This document shows, piece by piece, positions 6,005 through 49,068 of a stretch of 64,000 bases of DNA. Both the position numbers and the translations under genes were made by a program. The stretch is taken from contig NC_083288.1 of the NCBI RefSeq assembly GCF_963506605.1, positions 28,334,001-28,398,000 of the forward strand, given 5' to 3'. Positions within the stretch are counted from its first letter, which is position 1; each line of letters opens with the position of its first letter. Under the pieces are notes generated by a model that worked only from the letters and a program-made list of their open reading frames with translations, had not been told where the DNA came from and made no database searches. Source of the DNA: Zootoca vivipara (taxonomy: Eukaryota).

Positions 6005-7065
6005 GTCTTTATTCAGACCAGGTCTCTCCATGTTTATTAAGCTTGGTAATGAGTGGCAATTCAGCAACTTCTCTTTCCAGTCTGTTTCTGAAAATTTTCT
6101 GTAATAAGACAGCTACTTTGAGATCTTGTATTGAATGTCCTGGGCGATTGAAGTGTTCTCCTACTGGTTTCTCTGTCTTGTGATTCCTGATGTCAGATTT
6201 ATGTCCATTTATCCTTTGGCGTAGGGTTTGGCCTGTTTGTAGAGAGCTGAAGGGCACTGTTGGCATTTGATGGCATACACAATGTTAGAAGATGAGCAAT
6301 TAAATAGTCCTGAGATGGTATGTTTGATATTGTTGGGGCCAGTAATGGTGTTGTCCGGGTGTATGTGGCAGCAAAGTTGGCATCTGGGTTTATTGTAGGC
6401 TCTGGTACCAGTGTCAATGTTAATTCTGGTGGTGGTATTATTGTGGGTGAGGAGTTGCTTAAGATTGGGTGGCTGTCTGTAGGCAATGAAAGGTCTTCCT
6501 CCCAGAGCTTGAGAAAGAGAACTGTCATTGTCTAGGAGAGGTTGTAGATCTCTGATGATGCACTGTACTGTTTTAACTTGGGAGCTGTATGTGATTACTA
6601 GTGGTGTTCTGTTATTTTCTTTTTGGGGTCTGTCTTGCAGCAAGTTCTCTCTGGGTATCAGTCTGGCTCTGTTGATCTGTTGTTTAACTTCATCGGGTGG
6701 ATATTTTAGTTCTAAAAAAGGTTTGCTGTAGATCTTTTAGGTGAGAGTCTCTGTCTGTAGAGTTGGAACAGATGTGGCTGTAACGTAGAGCCTGGCTGTA
6801 TACAATGGATTGTTTGGTATGTTTGGGATGGTAGCTAGAAGCATGTAGATATGTTTGTCGGTCAGTTGGTTTTCAGTATAGGGTGGTGCCTATACGCACA
6901 TCCTGTATTTTTATAGTAGTGTCCAAAAAATGTATTTCTATCGTTAACTGTCGTCAACAGGTTTACCACTCCTATCAGCCAATCACCCATTCCCACTACC
7001 CTTCTGAGTAATACCCCTCCGCACCCTCTGACTATACTTAAGGGTCTGGTGACTTCTGTTTCAGT

Positions 7066-38499: not shown

Positions 38500-38815
38500 A
38501 AACCACAGAGCTTGCCGATCAGAAGGTCGGCGGTTTGAATCCCCGCAATAGGATGAGCTCCCATTTTTCGGTCCCTGCTCCTGCCAACCTAGCAGTTCAA
38601 AAGCATGTCAAAGTGCAAGTAGATAAATAGGTACCACTCCAGCAGGAAGGTAAATGGTGTTTCCATGTGTTACTCTGGTTCGCCAGAAGTGGCTTAGTCA
38701 TGCTGGCCACATGACCTAGTACGCTGGCTCCCTTAGCTAGGAAAGTGAGATGAGCGCTGCAACCCCAGAGTCGCCCACGACTGGACTTAACTGTCAGGGG
38801 TCCCTTTACCTTTAC
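38500..38815 (+). mobile_element. Sauria SINE (5' truncated)
   Basis: gccgatcagaaggtcggcgg...gggtccctttacctttac tail. Confidence 0.88.
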
Positions 38816-38921
38816 TTTCTGCACAACATTGCTAATTATAACTGTTGTTTCGTGGGTTTCTTAAAATCTCTTCCCTCTGCGGGGGGAGGAGATGTTGTGG
38901 GCCCACGAGTCCTTCACGTGC

Positions 38922-39029
38922 GGGGGGAATGGCTAGCATTCCCCCCAGCCCATTGGTTCCTTCCCTGCCGCGACGCTCCCTTGGCTCACCCAATCAGGAC
39001 GCTCCCTGGGGGCTTAGCGGTGTATTTAA
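38922..39029 (+). promoter_or_regulatory. Putative internal Pol II promoter of the YR element
   Basis: Perfect palindrome ggggggaatg-gctag-cattcccccc (38922-38946), ATTGG at 38952, CCAAT at 38989, TATTTAA at 39023-39029. Confidence 0.55.
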
Positions 39030-40505
39030 GGGAGCGCGCGGCAGGAAAACATCCTCTTGTATCCGGACCCGACCTGCTTTTGGACCTGGATCCTGCTTCG
39101 GTCAGCGTCTCTCAGCGCCGCTTCTTCGCCAGGAAGAAATCCGAGCTGCAAATCACTTAAACGGCGTTTTTAAACGCCAACTTTCTTTACAGGCTGCTTC
39201 CCAGGATCGCTCTTGCCGCCTCCGTAGCCGCCGGGCTTCTCGCGTCCTCGCTGCGCTCGGCGCCGGCCGGCAAGCCCACCCTCGCCCTGTCCGCGTGGCG
39301 ACTGGCTTCCGGGGACGCTGCAGCCACCTCCTCCGCCGCGGCGCCTCTCCATGAGGCGCCTAACAGCTGTTTCCCCCAGCCGCCGGTCTCGCGGCGCTCG
39401 GCGCGCCTGATTCACGCCAGTCCGGCTCTTCTCGTGGCTGGGAGCTCGCGGCCACCTTCTTCCCCCTCATTGCGCCTAACAGCTGTTTTTCTTCGGCGGC
39501 AGTAACGCAGCGCTCGGGGCACCCGATTCGTGGCTGACCGGCTCCCTAGCCGCAGCGGTCTACCGGCCAACTTCCGCGCTGGGGCGCCCCCTCACGAAGC
39601 GCCAAACAGCTCCTTGCCTTTATCGCCGGTCCTTCTGTGCTTGGGGCGTTTGAGCCACGGCCAGCCTGACATAACAACGCCCGCGATCCTGCTTCACAGC
39701 TTCGGTGGCAACGGTTACGCTCCCGCTCGCAGCTCCTGCTTCGGCAACGCTTCCTGCAGGTCAGTCGCCCGGGATCCCTTGGGGCCGCCCGGGCTAACAC
39801 CGCCATTTAAGGTTTCGTGTTTATTAGGGAATTCTGTCCTTGCTTTATTCCGGGGTCTCCTGTTGTGTGGTGGCTAATCTCTGCTTCTGACTTCCCTGTT
39901 GTTGGGCCGCCATTTTGTTTCTTGGGTTACCAGGGTAACGTGGGGGCCGCCATTTTGAGAGACCTCGTGTGCGGCGCCATTTTGAGCAAGGGGTTTCATT
40001 TCCTTGCTTTCTTTTGATCACGTTAGCTCGTTGTTTGTCTGCATCGCCTCCGGCTCATTGTTTCTTTGTTGCAATTTCCCTTTTTCCCCCCTTCTCGGAT
40101 TTCTAGTTTCTTTGTTGCAATTACCTTTTGCCCCCTTCTCGGATCTCTAGCTCTGAGCCGGTGTGATTTAACTTTTACCTTCTATTGGAGTCAGTAGCAG
40201 CTTCAAGCTGCAACAGTTGCATACAGACTTAGCCTCTGGTCAAGCAGCAGCCGGGTAGCTTGCCTTTGTTACAAGTTTCCTTTCCCATTTATTCTCAAAG
40301 CAAGGGCGGTGCCTTTTACACAGTAGCAGCCTGCCTGCAAGGTTCTGCTTCCCTTGTATTGCCTTGTCAGTTTATCTCTGTTGTTCTACTGTACAATTAG
40401 GCTTGCTTCGTTTCTTAAAGCAGTAATTTTGGTCACTTGGCTGAGTTAACAATATCAATATATATATAGCTATTTGTCTATAGAAGAAGGTGTTCATCTT
40501 GTTTC

Positions 40506-40650
40506 NNNNNNNNNNNNNNNNNNNNNNNNNNNNNNNNNNNNNNNNNNNNNNNNNNNNNNNNNNNNNNNNNNNNNNNNNNNNNNNNNNNNNNNNNNNNNNN
40601 NNNNNNNNNNNNNNNNNNNNNNNNNNNNNNNNNNNNNNNNNNNNNNNNNN
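40506..40650. other. Assembly gap inside the YR element leader
   Basis: Run of N. Confidence 1.
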
Positions 40651-40965
40651 ACGCAGTAAATTTACTGCCTGAGTTGGCATCAAATTGGTACTGTTACTGC
40701 CATTGCCCTTGTCTCATCTGCCTTCACCTCATCCGGGGCCATAAGCCGGGGTCCGTAGGGCGTTTATTTCACACTTTAATTAGTTATACATCTAGCTGGG
40801 GCCTTATCAGGCCAAGTTAATTTTCTGGCAATTTGCAGTTAGGGTTTGCTCAGGGCTTACTAAGACTTTTCGTTTGGCGCATTATACTGCTCTCCTGCCT
40901 CACTTTGCCTACAGTCAACTTTCATTCAGGATCCTCAGACGCCTCTTTCTCAATTATCAAGTGCA

Positions 40966-42462
40966 ATGGCCCCTAAACGCAAACAGAAGGAGTCCGCAGC
41001 AGCGCCCGCAAAAAGACGCCCTACGAATGGCAACAGCTCTTCCAGCACTCCTGCGTTTACCTCTATTTCTGTTTCACCCGAAGCTTTAGCTAGCTTATTC
41101 TCGGGCGTCCAGAGTTTCTTTCAACAGGTTTCTAGGCCGGGTGTCACCATTCAAGAAGTCCCCACGGAAGGGTCTCCTGACTTCATTGCCGAGACACCCA
41201 CGGCTGAAGCTGCGCACCCCGGGCCTTCATCGGCTATTCCCCAGGAACAGACTAGGCGTATGGAAACCAGGTCCCAATCTGCCGCTGCGGATGTGGCCCC
41301 TGCCGGTGCCAGGGACAAGACTCCTTCTCCCGCTGCGGGTAACACTTATATTTCCCAGCTGTCACCAGGTACCCCTGCTTGTCTGCGGACCCAGCCGCCT
41401 GATTCCCATAATAGGTCCAGGCGTCTCTCGTCGATTACATCCTATGATAGTGATGCCCAGGACCAGGCGAGAGCTACGCAGTCTCAACAGGACACCGCTC
41501 AGCAGGGCGACCAGGAGAAGGGGAAGACGAAGAAGACGGGTCTGAAGAAAACTAAGAAGACCAAGCACACGGAGCCGGAGGGTGACTCAGGTACTTCCTC
41601 TTCTAGTTCCGATGAGGATGAAGGAATTCTAGATGGGTACTGGGGCCAGGGGGAAGATCTGATTGGTTTGCCTCTTTGGGCACACGAGCGGAGGGCTAAC
41701 TCACACCGCAAAACCTTTAATGGCACATTGGAGTGGAAAAATGGGGCTTTGGTGGAAGATGTAAAAACTTCCACTTTTGTATCTTCTGACTTCATTATTG
41801 GGAATCATTTGTCTAGCAAGAAAAGGAATAAGATCCTGAATGGGGATTTTGTTGACATTTTTACCCTCTTGCCACCCGCAAAGTTAAAGGGAAAAGGGGA
41901 AAAGAAACACACATATGGAAAACGTAAATATAGGGAGCCTAGGGCAGAGTGCACCTTCGAAAATTGGTTGGACGGTTTCCAGGTATATATGGGTACCATA
42001 GTGGCTTGTTATCCAAAGAGGGCAATGCACCTCGTGGCCTATATGGCTCATGTGAGACGTGCTTACGAGTTGGCTGGGGAGGGACCGGCTCTCCTGTATG
42101 ATGAGGATTTTCGAAGGAACGCCTCCCTTTTGGCCACCACCCGTTGGGACCTGCGTGACCAGAACTTCTGGGGTGAGCACGTTAACCCTTACATTGAAAA
42201 GAAACACCCAGAGGCATCCCGATATGCAAAATTTGAACCAAAAAAACCAAGCCGCCGACTAGTGTGCTGGGAATTTAATAAGGGCACGTGCACCAGAGCA
42301 TTCTGCAAATATAGTCACGAGTGCGAGAGGTGCCAAGGGGCCCACCCAGCGTCCGCTTGCTTCAAGGGCCAGCAGTCCTTTCGTGGGGGTCGCGGGAACT
42401 TTCGGCAAGGCCCGAAAAGTGCAGCAGCCCAAGGACCTGGCCACACAGCCAACAGATACTAA
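40966..42462 (+). CDS. Gag-like ORF1 of the Ngaro-like element, 498 aa
   Basis: Basic NLS-like N-terminus, Ser/acidic tract, C-terminal CCCH plus CCHC-like fingers (CWEFNKGTCTRAFCKYSHECERCQGAHPASAC), RGG tail. Confidence 0.88.
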   Translation: MAPKRKQKESAAAPAKRRPTNGNSSSSTPAFTSISVSPEALASLFSGVQSFFQQVSRPGVTIQEVPTEGSPDFIAETPTAEAAHPGPSSAIPQEQTRRMETRSQSAAADVAPAGARDKTPSPAAGNTYISQLSPGTPACLRTQPPDSHNRSRRLSSITSYDSDAQDQARATQSQQDTAQQGDQEKGKTKKTGLKKTKKTKHTEPEGDSGTSSSSSDEDEGILDGYWGQGEDLIGLPLWAHERRANSHRKTFNGTLEWKNGALVEDVKTSTFVSSDFIIGNHLSSKKRNKILNGDFVDIFTLLPPAKLKGKGEKKHTYGKRKYREPRAECTFENWLDGFQVYMGTIVACYPKRAMHLVAYMAHVRRAYELAGEGPALLYDEDFRRNASLLATTRWDLRDQNFWGEHVNPYIEKKHPEASRYAKFEPKKPSRRLVCWEFNKGTCTRAFCKYSHECERCQGAHPASACFKGQQSFRGGRGNFRQGPKSAAAQGPGHTANRY

Positions 42463-44074
42463 TTTGTCCCTGTCCTTGGCGTTTTCTCCTATCAAACTCC
42501 TCCCTTTAAAATCATTATTACAACTATATCCCGATAGGCAAGCAGCAAAGTATTTGTGGGACGGATTTTCTTTGGGCTTCAGAATTCCAGTAGCAGTACC
42601 ACCAGTTTCGGGTGACCCACCAAATCAAAAGTCAGTACGGGACATGCCCGAGGTAGCCAGAAAGAAAATCAATAAGGAAATTAAAGCGAATAGAATAGCT
42701 GGCCCCTTTTCCTTCCCCCCGCTGCAGGACCTTCATGTTTCCCCACTGGGTGTTGTCCCTAAAAAGATCCCAGGTGAGTTTAGATTAATTCACAATTTAT
42801 CTCATCCCAAAGGCTCCTCAGTCAATGATGGTATCCCCCAGGAGCTTTGTACCGTTAAATACGCCTCCTTTGACCAGGCAATAAAGCTTATTAGGAAATT
42901 TGGCAGAGGCGCTTTATTGGCAAAATGTGATATTGAATCTGCATTCCGCTTGCTGCCAGTTCACCCTCACGACTTCAGGTGGCTGGGATTCAAGTTTGAG
43001 GGGGCGTATTACGTTGACAAAGCAATGCCCATGGGGTGTTCAGTAGCATGCTCAGCCTTTGAATCGTTCAGCACATTTTTGGATTGGGCACTCAGATTTA
43101 GAACAGGCCTCGAGGGCGTGACACATTACTTGGATGACTTCCTTTTCTGCGGGCGGGCTCTGAGTGCGGATTGTGCTTATCTCCTTGAAGCCTTCGCATC
43201 CCTGACCGCAGAGCTGGGCGTACCTTTGGCTGCAGAAAAAACTGAAGGACCGGCATCCACCATAACGTATTTGGGCATTGAGTTGGACACCGTTGCCCAA
43301 ACATCCCGATTACCCCCAGAAAAATTAGCGGCCCTTAAGCAAATTATTTCGGAGACACTTCCTCTCAGGAAAGTGACTCTGAAACAAATCCAATCCCTCC
43401 TGGGTCACCTTAATTTTGCCTGCAGAGTGGTGTCCCCAGGACGTCCCTTTTGCGCAAGGCTTGCTAGACTGTCAGCAGGACTGCGCGCGTCTCACCATAG
43501 GGTGCGCCTCAATAAAAGTGTAAAATCCGACCTGAAGGTTTGGTTACAGTTTTTAGAAAAATTCAACGGCATCTCTTTGTGGCAGGACACTTTGAGTTTA
43601 AGAGTAGATTTCCAGGTACACTCTGATGCTGCGGGTTCTCTGGGTTTTGGAGTATACTTTAAGGGCAGATGGTGCGCCCAGCACTGGCCTCCGCAATGGA
43701 AGAAGAAACCCCTCATTCGCGATCTAACATTTCTGGAATTTTTTCCCATAGTTGTAGCGGTTCATTTGTGGGCAGACGAGTTCAAGAACCATCGGGTATG
43801 CTTTTGGACCGATAACCAGGCTGTGGTCAACGTTCTCTCAAGACAATCTTCACGATCTCCCAGAGTGTCCGTTTTGCTGCGGGCCTTTGTGTTGCTCTGC
43901 TTGCAATTGAACATCTATTTCTCTGCCAAATTTGTACCCGGTGTTAATAATGATATCGCGGACGCTTTATCTCGTTTCCAGATGGACCGCTTCCGCTCTC
44001 TTGCTCCAGAGGCTCAGCAGTTGCCGGAGGCGTTCCCGGAACATCTATGGAATCTTGGGAACGAGACGTGCTAG
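42383..44074 (+). CDS. Reverse transcriptase-RNase H ORF2 (no ATG at 5' end)
   Basis: SPLGVVPKK, FRLIHNLS, AKCDIESAFRLLP, MPMG, YLDD, YLGI; RNase H SDA, EFFPI, TDN, NDIADALSR. Confidence 0.95.
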   Translation: MGVAGTFGKARKVQQPKDLATQPTDTNLSLSLAFSPIKLLPLKSLLQLYPDRQAAKYLWDGFSLGFRIPVAVPPVSGDPPNQKSVRDMPEVARKKINKEIKANRIAGPFSFPPLQDLHVSPLGVVPKKIPGEFRLIHNLSHPKGSSVNDGIPQELCTVKYASFDQAIKLIRKFGRGALLAKCDIESAFRLLPVHPHDFRWLGFKFEGAYYVDKAMPMGCSVACSAFESFSTFLDWALRFRTGLEGVTHYLDDFLFCGRALSADCAYLLEAFASLTAELGVPLAAEKTEGPASTITYLGIELDTVAQTSRLPPEKLAALKQIISETLPLRKVTLKQIQSLLGHLNFACRVVSPGRPFCARLARLSAGLRASHHRVRLNKSVKSDLKVWLQFLEKFNGISLWQDTLSLRVDFQVHSDAAGSLGFGVYFKGRWCAQHWPPQWKKKPLIRDLTFLEFFPIVVAVHLWADEFKNHRVCFWTDNQAVVNVLSRQSSRSPRVSVLLRAFVLLCLQLNIYFSAKFVPGVNNDIADALSRFQMDRFRSLAPEAQQLPEAFPEHLWNLGNETC

Positions 44075-44961
44075 AGGGAGTACTGGCGTCGGTTGCCCCC
44101 TCCACTCTTAACACCTATAAAAAGGCCTGGTCTGATTTCCGGTCCTTTCGCGTTAGGACCACGGGTTCAAATGGAGACACACCCCCCAGTAGGAGGGAGG
44201 TCCTAGCGTACTTAGCCGGTTTAAGGAGACTGGGCAGGGCACCCAGAACCTTGCACATTCAAACAGCCGCTATCTCCTTCTTTAGTAAGGCCAGCTATGC
44301 AACGGACCCTTGCGCGGATTTTCTGGTGCGCAAAGCTTTGGAGGGCTGGCGCAGGCTCCAGCCTCCGCGCAGGGATAATCGGAAACCCATTACTTTTGAA
44401 TTATTATTCCAAATTCACAAACAGCTCAGGAAGCTGTGCTGGTCAAAATATGAGGCAAGACTTTTCTCAGCAGCTTACTCTTTAGCCTTTTTCGGTGCGC
44501 TCAGGGTTGGTGAGGTGGTGTGCGAGGGATCCCCCGCCCAAACCGCCAAGGGTATCTTGTTATCTGACCTAACGTTGACAGAAAAGGAAGTGTTAATTCA
44601 CATCCGCCAATCAAAAACGGATCAACTGGGTAAGGGCACCTCGATGCGCTTGCCAGCTACAGGCCATTGCGGCCCCTGTCCCGTAAAGGACACTAGGCGT
44701 TTTCTCCATTTGAGGCCCGCCTCACCCGGTCCGTTTTTAATTCACCAGGACGGGTCCTGTTTAGCCCGCCACCAATTTACCCGCGTTATGCGCAGGGCTA
44801 TTGCTGCATGCGGTCTTCCTCCCTCTGATTTTGCAGCACATTCATTCCGTATTGGTGCTGCCACAACTGCGGTACATATGGGTTTGTCTGCAGAGAGAAT
44901 AAAAGATCTAGGCCGTTGGAAGTCCAAAGCGTACAAGGGGTACCTCCGATCTTCAAAATAA
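44047..44961 (+). CDS. Tyrosine recombinase ORF3, 304 aa
   Basis: Catalytic R (LRVGE), K (SKTDQ), H-x-x-R (HSFRIGAAT), GRW, Y (AYKGY); overlaps the end of ORF2. Confidence 0.95.
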   Translation: MESWERDVLEGVLASVAPSTLNTYKKAWSDFRSFRVRTTGSNGDTPPSRREVLAYLAGLRRLGRAPRTLHIQTAAISFFSKASYATDPCADFLVRKALEGWRRLQPPRRDNRKPITFELLFQIHKQLRKLCWSKYEARLFSAAYSLAFFGALRVGEVVCEGSPAQTAKGILLSDLTLTEKEVLIHIRQSKTDQLGKGTSMRLPATGHCGPCPVKDTRRFLHLRPASPGPFLIHQDGSCLARHQFTRVMRRAIAACGLPPSDFAAHSFRIGAATTAVHMGLSAERIKDLGRWKSKAYKGYLRSSK

Positions 44962-45022
44962 GCACTTCCGTTTTCGGCTGTTGGCTGACGTTCCCTTTAC
45001 GTTCCCTTTGTTTCCTTTGCAG

Positions 45023-45594
45023 AAAAACGCGTAAACATCTGGTTCATTGGTCATAGCATCGTGCATTGGGCCCGGGCTCGCGCTTATGATCGGAGAATGG
45101 GGCCCAGCCTAGGGTTGCCATCATGGGTTAGAGTGTCCTGGATCACGAGACGGGGTATGCGTTGGAATGAGTTCCTGCCAACCGTGAAGTCTAGAGCCGC
45201 TATGCTGGGCCCTCCCGATATTCTGGTGGTGCAGCTGGGCGAAAATGATTTGGCTTATCGCTCTGGCCAGGATTTAAAATGGACTATCTTTGCGGACTTT
45301 GATGGCCTGCTGGCGGATTTCCCCAACTTGACAATTTTTTGGTCCTCGCTGATGGAGAGGCGAGTTTGGCGCGACTGCTTTTCGCCCGCTGCTGTAAACA
45401 AAGCAAGGAAGTTTCTGGATATCGCTGTGGCCAGAAAGGTCTTGACCTTGAATGGACATTATATACCGCACCCGGACATTAGGTTCAATGAGCTTTCGTT
45501 ATACCGTGATGATGGCGTCCATCTTTCCGATGATGGGAATGACATTTGGATTTCTGATATACTAGGTGCTATTAGGAATTGGTTGCGACTGTAA
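45023..45594 (+). CDS. SGNH/GDSL hydrolase ORF4 (probable spliced terminal exon)
   Basis: Frame extends upstream of the listed GTG: KRVNIWFIGHSIV (block I Ser), RRG (block II), QLGENDL (block III), DGVH (block V); preceded by branch point, pyrimidine tract and CAG (45020-45022). Confidence 0.85.
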
Positions 45595-45925
45595 GGGTAT
45601 TGGCGGCGAACCCCTTTCGGGGCTCGATTGGCGGTAGGCATTGGATTATCTCAAGAAGGTACAGGTGCGGGGGGGGGGGGAGGTTGCTGCCATCACCTCC
45701 CCCAAATGCGAAGGGTACTCCCCTAAGGAGTCCGGGGCGTTGCCATGTCCGAAGCCGTGGTAGGTGAGGGCCTGAGGGCTCGCCCCTAATGGTGGCCCCA
45801 GGATGAGTTCCTAGTTGATGTGCATCGCAGGACTCATCCAACGGTGGTTAACCCTTCACAGACTGCCAGCAGAGCGGGCTGGAGTCAGATATAGTCGGTT
45901 AGATCCAATGCCTATGCCAATACCC
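45595..45925 (+). ncRNA. Large structured RNA element in the 3' UTR of the YR retrotransposon
   Basis: About ten mutually compatible nested helices, closed by gggtattggc/gccaataccc and taggcattggat/atccaatgccta. Confidence 0.7.
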
Positions 45926-45941
45926 CTCTACAGTCGTAATC

Positions 45942-46000
45942 AATAAAGTTGTGGCCTTTTCATGCCCATTAACCTTATATCCTGTGTCTGGTGTCTTTAT
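45942..46000 (+). terminator. Polyadenylation signal of the YR element
   Basis: AATAAA at 45942-45947 followed by GU-rich tgtgtctggtgtcttt. Confidence 0.65.
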
Positions 46001-46034
46001 TTCTCGCGGGGAGGACTCGGGGCATCGCCACACA

Positions 46035-46772
46035 ATAGTAGTCATTCAGTGACAACATCTTCATGATCACAGCAACAAGACAAGACTGACTCTGAGGACA
46101 GGGAAGCTACATTTATAGGGACAGGGGACTAGCTAGAAAGGGATACATTTTGGAGGGAACAATATCAGGCAATCACAGTGCTGCCTTTTGGAGGAAACCA
46201 ATAAGACAGAGGATCCAAATACAGCAGCTTAAATGAACCAATAGTAGCTGCACCTTCTGGAACCAAAAGGCACTTACTTTACCCTAAAGCAAATACAGAC
46301 AATAGTAATACAGATACAGTGGAACCTCGGTTTATGAACACCTCGGTTTACGAATTTTCGGTTTGCGAACGCCGCGGACCTATCTGGAACGGATTAATTC
46401 ACTTTCCATTACTTTCAATGGGAAAGTTTGCTTCAGTTTATGAACGCTTCAGTTTATGAACAGACTTCCGGAACCAATTACACCCATGCTTCGGGTTAAG
46501 TACGCTTCAGGTTGAGTACTCCGCGGACCCGTCTGGAACGGATTAATCCACTTTCCATTACTTTCAATGGGAAAGTTCGCTTCAGTTTATGAACGCTTCA
46601 GTTTAAGTACTCTGTGGACCGTCTGGAACAGATTAATCCACTTTCCATTACTTTCAATGGGAAAGTTCGCTTCAGTTTATGAACGCTTCAGTTTATGAAC
46701 AGACTTCTGGAACCAATTGTGTCCATAAACCGAGGTACCACTGTATAAAATCCTTTGACTCAATACACAACA
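46035..46772 (-). mobile_element. Probable LTR (U3-R part) interrupted by a MITE and by the YR element
   Basis: - strand begins TGTTGTGTATTG at 46772 and has several CCAAT boxes and TATAAAT (46111-46117); the possible 3' end ...AAACAACA lies at 38843-38890. Confidence 0.5.
46317..46743. mobile_element. Tc1/mariner-type MITE with internal ~90-bp triplication
   Basis: TA|cagtggaacctcggtttatg...cataaaccgaggtaccactg|TA; three copies of ggaac.gattaat.cactttccattactttcaatgggaaagtt.gcttcagtttatgaacg. Confidence 0.9.
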
Positions 46773-48024: not shown

Positions 48025-48138
48025 GATGTCTCCCAGTTGGATTGAGGGGAAGTATATTCAAATCTTACAAAACACACATAAAACACTTCTTTTTGTTTTT
48101 TTTGTTTTGTTTTCTACAGGCGGAAACACTCTGCACAT

Positions 48139-49068
48139 ATGGAGAATCAAACCCACATCACTGAGTTCATCCTCTTAGGCTTCTCCAGTGATCCAAAGCT
48201 CCAGATCGTACTCTTTGCAATCTTCCTGTTGATTTTTTTGATAACTCTGTCTGGCAACCTGGCCATCATTTTGGCTATAAGAATCGATGCTAATCTTCAC
48301 ACTCCCATGTATGTCTTCCTTTCTCATTTGGCTTCCCTTGATATTGCTTTTTCTTCTGTTACAGTTCCTAAAATGTTAGAAGACTTCCTTTCGGCCAGAA
48401 AAGCAATCACCGTTGATTGTTGTTTTACCCAGGTCTTCTTTGTCATGACGCTTTCAGTGGGAGAAGGTCTCCTCCTCTCTGTGATGGCATATGATCGGTA
48501 CACAGCCATCTGTCACCCCTTGCATTATAACGTGATGATGAGCAAACGGGTCTGTTTGCAGCTGGTGTGCCGTGCATTGTTCACAGGCTTTCTTTTTGCT
48601 CTACTGAACACCCTTCTGCTAACAACTCTGCACTTCTGCAGGGCCAATGTAATCCATCACTTCAGCTGTGAAGCCCCACAACTGTTCAAACTTTCCTGTA
48701 GCAGCACTTTTGCAAACCAAATGGTGATTTTCACCCTTGGCTCATTTTTAGGGATGGGGGCTCTCTTGATCACACTGGCTTCCTATATACACATCATCTC
48801 CGCTGTCTTGAGGATACGCTCCATGGAAGGGAAACGCAAGGCCTTTTCCACTTGCACATCTCACATGACAGTTGTTGTGCTGTACTATGGAACAATTTTC
48901 TTCAGGTACCTGAAGCCGACCTCAAAGAACTCTCAGGATCAGGAAATGGCTCCCTCTGTCATTTACTTTATTGTGATACCCATGTTAAACCCCATCATCT
49001 ACAGCCTCCGTAACCAAGAAGTGAAGAGAGCGCTACATAATATGGTGTGCAGAAAATTTAACAAATGA
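48139..49068 (+). CDS. Olfactory receptor, class II (OR5-like), 309 aa, open frame
   Basis: LHTPMYVFLSHL, MAYDRYTAICHPLHY, HHFSCE, KAFSTCTSHM, PMLNPIIYSLRN; acceptor ttttctacAG (48118-48119). Confidence 0.96.
   Translation: MENQTHITEFILLGFSSDPKLQIVLFAIFLLIFLITLSGNLAIILAIRIDANLHTPMYVFLSHLASLDIAFSSVTVPKMLEDFLSARKAITVDCCFTQVFFVMTLSVGEGLLLSVMAYDRYTAICHPLHYNVMMSKRVCLQLVCRALFTGFLFALLNTLLLTTLHFCRANVIHHFSCEAPQLFKLSCSSTFANQMVIFTLGSFLGMGALLITLASYIHIISAVLRIRSMEGKRKAFSTCTSHMTVVVLYYGTIFFRYLKPTSKNSQDQEMAPSVIYFIVIPMLNPIIYSLRNQEVKRALHNMVCRKFNK

Follow-up and report, generated by a model that had tools for sequence, protein, structure and literature searches.

A Ngaro-type retrotransposon of Zootoca vivipara probably expresses its SGNH esterase as a spliced fusion to the N terminus of Gag

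Introduction

The downstream genes of tyrosine-recombinase (YR) retrotransposons overlap and often lack a start codon, which raises the question of how they are expressed. The Xenopus elements DIRS-53_XT and DIRS-54_XT are Ngaro-like YR elements that carry an SGNH ORF of unproven function (excerpts of PMC9210276), and the one proposal for the YR ORF met in the literature searched is programmed frameshifting (Poulter and Butler, 2015, as quoted in excerpts of PMC13003380). The terms "splic" and "intron" do not occur in PMC9210276. The question arises again in a 64,000-nt stretch of the Zootoca vivipara genome (NC_083288.1, forward-strand positions 28,334,001 to 28,398,000; hereafter the window), where an SGNH hydrolase frame follows the stop codon of a recombinase. 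From the letters of the window, the original prediction read this frame as a terminal exon spliced to gag or to the RT frame, and named three candidate donors. Neither spliced Ngaro messages nor a PA-X-type motif in YR elements turned up in the literature searched; the primary Ngaro literature or Repbase could already mention splicing.

Results

A Ngaro-type element with four intact frames

The plus strand of the window carries a Ngaro-type tyrosine-recombinase retrotransposon (38863-46035), an assignment that rests on its ORF content and on the split-repeat layout of sister copies. Most of 39 sister loci in the same genome show the order A1-ORFs-B1-A2-B2, in which A and B recur 3' of the ORFs. 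The window copy terminates after B1 and has no second A or second B; it keeps A1 (38863-39081, the 3' end approximate and placed by comparison with sister copies) and B1 (45628-46035, with AATAAA close to its end).

Four frames are intact, encoding gag, RT/RNase H, tyrosine recombinase and SGNH. The gag ORF (40966-42462) encodes 498 aa from its ATG and has a CCCH zinc finger toward the C-terminus (zf-CCCH_10, E 0.003, under the Pfam cut-off). The pol frame (RT/RNase H, 42263-44074 from stop to stop) is +1 to gag, is open for 603 codons, matches RVT_1 at E 1.5e-10 and lies inside both of the introns described below. The YR exon (43982-44961, stop TAA at 44959-44961) follows and overlaps RT/RNase H. 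Its match to Phage_integrase falls under the cut-off (E 0.0037), and it has 270 homologues at E<=1e-30, many of them bearing integrase or recombinase names. The SGNH frame occupies 44989-45594 from stop to stop.

The SGNH frame encodes a conserved putative esterase

The proposed terminal exon (45023-45594) places the catalytic Ser, Gly, Asn, Asp and His codons at 45055, 45154, 45244, 45511 and 45520, and these residues are retained in 40, 40, 39, 39 and 40 of 40 copies, respectively. Among 71 homologues, G9, S11, G44, N74, D163 and H166 (the Asp-x-x-His pair included) are invariant or nearly so. Structure prediction, a check proposed along with the original prediction, recovered the SGNH/GDSL fold: the AF2 model has a pLDDT of 97 and a pTM of 0.92, and Foldseek matched it to GDSL/SGNH structures at a TM of about 0.7-0.77. 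At the sequence level, the Pfam Lipase_GDSL_2 match was under the cut-off (E 0.0054), and a search of solved structures with the esterase sequence returned no match. Searching 50% cluster representatives without a profile yielded 1439 relatives. Purifying selection acts on the exon, whose median dN/dS of 0.135 lies between the 0.04-0.07 of Gag-C, pol and YR and the 0.23 of Gag-N.

A conserved phase-1 acceptor precedes the esterase

The putative esterase acceptor (44985-45022, plus strand) consists of a branch-like site, a pyrimidine tract and a CAG that ends at 45022, after which AA AAA CGC leads in phase 1 into IWFIGHS. The catalytic Ser codon (45055) precedes the first in-frame ATG (45097). 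Acceptor, phase and the order of Ser and ATG are all found where the original prediction had placed them. Among the YAG sites on the plus strand of the window, 11 of 2013 have at least 17 pyrimidines in 20 and no AG in the preceding 40 nt; within the coding span 2 of 148 do so, 45022 being one.

We compared 80 loci: the window copy and 39 close copies, 20 distant-family loci picked from a list of 92 matches (esterase 43-49% identical to that of the window), and 20 further loci picked from a list of 105. In each of the 77 lizard copies whose catalytic motif could be located, the acceptor is in phase 1 (58 of 58 among the first 60 loci and 19 of 19 among the last 20). The best YAG lies 26 or 29 nt ahead of the catalytic Gly codon, the exception being the decayed locus L069, where the scored AG falls within an insertion. 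Because the copies are related, these counts describe one conserved site and should not be taken as 77 independent events. Among 15 subfamily representatives the acceptor is the most pyrimidine-rich invariant YAG, and identity is 0.46 in the spacer versus 0.75 in the tract. The acceptor and its phase, whose conservation across families had been proposed as a check, are thus kept down to about 43% protein identity. The CTGAC branch site named in the original prediction is present at 44985, but it is confined to the window copy and the sister closest to it, where it falls within a tandem duplication of 11 nt (44988-45009). Most of the remaining close copies read CTTAC or CTTAT, and two read CTCAT, about 26 nt ahead of the AG. 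The conserved YAG, the pyrimidine tract and the phase, which fits that of a conserved GT donor, are those of a U2-type spliced terminal exon.

A donor within gag serves the recombinase and probably the esterase

The donors at 41368, 41590 and 42773 all exist as originally described, and all three are in phase 1. The donor CAG|GTACTT (41588-41596, last exon base 41590, plus strand) is preserved across copies. TCAG|GTA is found in 39 of 40 close copies, and the exception has no recognisable gag. Three of 79 fourfold-degenerate columns in gag keep their third base in the 15 representatives, and two of the three are the Ser and Gly codons of this donor. In the distant set, where 5 of 20 loci were omitted for lack of a gag match at the expected place, 13 of 15 copies have a phase-1 G|GT at the homologous place, just past the basic cluster; the distant copies L087 and L088 have no donor there. 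All 15 copies of the third set with a findable gag have one as well (4 of 19 have no findable gag).

We read about 6% of each of three raw RNA runs carrying the same species label (X6, X7 and X8). Coverage of the window copy was near zero, and variants in the esterase reads agreed at 11 of 11 sites with L041, a sister copy 85% identical to that of the window. One joint was found on L041 (5610->3218, GT..AG, on the element strand), equivalent to 41590->43982 in the window; it was carried by 6 reads from 4 starts in X6 and by none in X7 or X8. It puts Gag-N in frame with the recombinase. Donor 41590 is therefore real: in the sister copy, and in one of three runs, it is spliced to the recombinase acceptor. 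That acceptor (43962-43981 on the plus strand; exon from 43982, phase 1) reads TTCCAG|AT in 37 of 40 close copies, and every distant copy whose motif could be located (15 and 16 copies) has CAG ATG there. Part of this conservation is owed to protein, since the site overlaps the RNase H ADALSRFQ codons. The start of the recombinase is unconserved, the nearest ATG reading GTG or TTG in 9 of 15 representatives, and the predicted Gag-N-YR product has 534 aa. Just past the pol stop, seven fourfold sites are invariant (44077-44104), perhaps reflecting a constraint at the RNA level such as a splicing enhancer; the folding of a hairpin at 44065-44125 was not significant (z -0.86).

For the esterase joint (41590->45023), no read was found among the joints listed on the window copy or L041 at the threshold of 3 reads. 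The absence of junction reads weighs little, given a depth of 0-3 at the L041 acceptor and a sampling of about 6% of each run. Gene models add to the RNA evidence. A Zootoca vivipara RefSeq protein matches L041 at 100%, and the corresponding gene, LOC118082278, has two isoforms: X1 (533 aa) is Gag(1-207)-recombinase and X2 (397 aa) is Gag(1-207)-esterase. Their junctions and lengths equal those computed from the two acceptors. The NCBI pipeline derives alternative isoforms from transcript alignments, on which the X2 intron may also rest. Furthermore, in 13 of 18 longer esterase homologues the esterase directly follows a basic cluster; 4 have YR pieces joined to it and 1 has another N-terminus. 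Of 17 chosen recombinase protein models, several, from other lizards, frogs and a mussel, also have a low-complexity leader ahead of YR. No genomic copy with the parts already joined was found among 105 matches to the RefSeq fusion or among 92 matches to the fusion of a distant family. Homologues on short contigs (Logan, ENA) have their first residue at an internal Met or inside the spacer, and the junction is not visible in them.

Since the donor is conserved and spliced in RNA of the sister copy, and since the exact junction stands in a RefSeq isoform, we consider it very probable that the SGNH esterase is made as a spliced Gag-N-esterase fusion of 398 aa, from donor 41590 to acceptor 45023. 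The original prediction of an env-like spliced message is supported as regards the spliced terminal exon. It did not name the recombinase as a target: donor 41590 feeds that enzyme too, which makes the esterase message one of two alternative products instead of a lone env-like one.

Some reads on L041 leave or enter the esterase at 1957 and 1987 onto sequence absent from the compared loci (11 and 8 reads). They probably derive from truncated or chimeric copies elsewhere.

The shared Gag leader

The exon shared by both predicted fusions (Gag-N, 40966-41590, plus strand) spans 208 codons and 1 nt, ends in phase 1 and is low in complexity and rich in Ser, Ala, Pro and Thr. Three elements stand out on its plus strand. 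A bipartite basic motif (40975-41019), in which R5 and K6 are invariant and K4 nearly so in 24 Gag N-termini, is presumably similar to a nuclear-localisation signal (NLS-like). A nearly uncharged amphipathic helix follows (41080-41133; hydrophobic moment 0.52-0.55), with L44, F45, S46, G47, Q49, F51, F52, Q53 and Q54 invariant in 24 copies; we take it to resemble membrane-sensing ALPS helices. Directly ahead of the donor lies a Lys-rich cluster (41515-41565; 9 of 17 residues K or R), and similar clusters occur in 13 of the 18 gene models and in distant families too.

The splice could be real and the leader still provide a start codon and a nuclear signal alone, with an esterase that is nuclear or cleaves a non-lipid ester and plays no part in particles or membranes. 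The low complexity and fast evolution of Gag-N (dN/dS 0.23) fit this reading, as does the NLS-like motif at the very start of the leader, which also heads the recombinase, an enzyme that must act on chromosomes. However, the most conserved block of the leader is the nearly uncharged helix, and the esterase of a LINE cleaves pNP acetate and butyrate, with a role of lipids argued (excerpts of PMC3905857). A purely nuclear or non-lipid function is, in our estimation, rather unlikely.

Other routes to the esterase

Translation of the esterase alone, by re-initiation or leaky scanning at an AUG or near-cognate codon, would make the acceptor incidental or minor. Unspliced reads do cover the spacer ahead of the esterase (4 reads, X7), and the term "ATG-less" in the original prediction needs restricting: it holds for the window copy and for 21 of 58 copies in all, but the other 37 have an in-frame Met ahead of the catalytic loop. 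The positions of these Mets are unconserved, mostly -2 or -17 codons; the -17 Met belongs to the branch-site motif, and a start at the -2 Met would remove strand beta-1 of the model. Solo translation also leaves the invariant AG unexplained, and we regard it as very improbable.

We give equally little credence to synthesis of the esterase as an extension of the recombinase C-terminus, whether through read-through of the stop, frameshifting or splicing from a site inside YR. YR and esterase share a frame in the window and in 35 of 77 copies, 29 of these with a single stop, and YR pieces are joined to the esterase in the 4 gene models mentioned above. Yet the YR-esterase offset is 0, 1 or 2 in 35, 28 and 10 of the 77 copies (4 unassigned) against a constant acceptor phase, and every in-frame copy carries at least one stop between the two, the window copy two. 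The varying offset and the stop in every in-frame copy exclude read-through or a fixed frameshift as a general route, and no donor that is both strong and invariant turned up within YR. Fusion matches that had appeared as open frames of 541-542 aa were discarded, a stop being present in the seven loci read.

The least likely route of all is the pre-RT-esterase or Gag-pre-RT-esterase fusion that the original prediction also allowed from CAG|GTGAGT after 42773, since this site, although in phase 1 in the pol frame and the top consensus score among GT sites scanned at 38500-45022, encodes a conserved P-G-E-F motif, has the perfect sequence in 3 of 40 copies, has lost its GT through synonymous change in 13 of 40 and is used by none of the 18 gene models. 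The remaining donor, 41368, is disfavoured as well: YAG|GTAC is found there in 34 of 40 copies, and its third codon positions vary among the 15 representatives. As judged from conservation, 41590 alone survives of the three proposed donors, with a weaker case against 41368 than against 42773.

A candidate frameshift site for Gag-Pol

Gag also contains an in-frame TCC TTT CGT (42376-42384, plus strand), a candidate site for +1 ribosomal frameshifting into pol. Past it, the +1 frame is open for 563 codons in the window copy and encodes 560-563 aa in 39 of 48 copies. Of 50 copies whose gag finger could be located (10 further loci had none), 48 have TTT CGN at the gag-pol overlap and two read Phe-Gln; in the third set, 15 of 15 such copies have it. 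As a background, 53 of 159 Phe-Arg pairs are encoded by TTT-CGN, the overlap sites counted in. At the loci L075 and L081, an indel past the motif has apparently brought gag and pol into a single frame, of 1116 and 1094 codons.

In influenza, UCC_UUU_CGU is the +1 frameshift motif of PA-X (excerpts of PMC3498833). The window copy has the identical nonamer in frame, its relatives have YCC_UUU_CGN, and a long +1 frame lies behind it. UCC_UUU_CGU in gag is thus a candidate PA-X-type site, which here would yield a retrotransposon Gag-Pol, as predicted from conservation alone. The terms "DIRS" and "Ngaro" are absent from the first 300,000 characters of a review of frameshifting (PMC5009743).

Discussion

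A single RNA could serve all four genes of the element. Unspliced, it would be translated into Gag and, by the predicted +1 shift at UCC_UUU_CGU, into Gag-Pol. Joining donor 41590 to acceptor 43982, as seen in RNA of the sister copy, gives Gag(1-208)-recombinase, and joining the same donor to acceptor 45023 would give the 398-aa Gag(1-208)-esterase. The shared leader would provide the start codon for both enzymes, as the frames indicate, and its basic motifs and amphipathic helix probably bring both to wherever Gag goes. There the esterase would cleave acyl esters, probably those of membrane lipids by analogy with the LINE esterase. We somewhat favor extending this scheme to animal Ngaro elements in general: Gag from unspliced RNA, Gag-Pol by +1 shift, and Gag-N-recombinase and Gag-N-esterase by alternative 3' splice sites, so that all four products carry the same addressing leader, the balance between integrase and lipid esterase is set by splicing, and the order of basic motif and esterase in LINE ORF1p is rebuilt.

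Retroviral env and foamy-virus pol are downstream genes expressed by splicing pol out of the genomic RNA, and the Ngaro element likewise appears to express its downstream genes by removing pol. Its donor, however, lies 208 codons inside gag, so that both products would be Gag fusions, and the targets are two enzymes, with no envelope protein among them.

The Xenopus elements offer a further comparison. As described in excerpts of PMC9210276, DIRS-53_XT and DIRS-54_XT share with the lizard element the A1-ORFs-B1-A2-B2 layout and the order gag, RT/RH, YR and SGNH hydrolase ORF. In the lizard, however, a splice observed in RNA leads to YR, and a second acceptor for the same donor likely leads to the hydrolase.

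The esterase itself invites comparison with ORF1p of ZfL2-1 (CR1 clade), whose esterase hydrolyses pNP esters and is preceded by an arginine-rich motif (excerpts of PMC3905857). The two enzymes share the SGNH fold (structure 4c1b; Foldseek E 1.5e-7, 17% identity, rank 16) and the same catalytic set; a search at the sequence level found no match, and for the Ngaro enzyme esterase activity is a prediction. In ZfL2-1 a basic motif lies upstream of the esterase in one polypeptide, as is predicted for the spliced Ngaro product, but the LINE fusion is made within one ORF (excerpts of PMC3905857), whereas that of the Ngaro element would arise by splicing, with a leader common to Gag and the recombinase.

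These comparisons have practical consequences. The element offers exact, testable junctions, one of them with RNA support. If the scheme is right, the real proteins are a recombinase and an esterase with a 208-residue Gag leader, a form that biochemistry with the ORFs in isolation would overlook. What transposon esterases do becomes testable in a second, unrelated class of elements, and the PA-X frameshift motif gains a candidate use in retrotransposons.

Several further features of the locus deserve mention. In the fast-diverging 5' UTR (39100-40900, ~2 kb), identity between subfamilies is about 0.2; this stretch also includes short repeats in a tandem-like arrangement and, at 39759, a good donor. 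The expressed copy L041 lacks most of the 2-kb 5' UTR (6230-6450); a SINE-like repeat lies about 170 nt upstream, and a pyrimidine-AG site directly precedes the gag ATG. Transcription of L041 may depend on host sequence. At the other end of the element, the ends of 45591-45930 are complementary by eye (about 45593-45640 with 45908-45927), which suggests a long-range RNA helix across repeat B. A non-autonomous element (46314-46746), whose terminal inverted repeats measure 28 nt and whose internal repeats measure 105 nt, adjoins the Ngaro end. About 2 kb downstream, the minus strand carries an intact single-exon ORF of 328 aa (48082-49068), which we take from its motifs to be olfactory-receptor-like.
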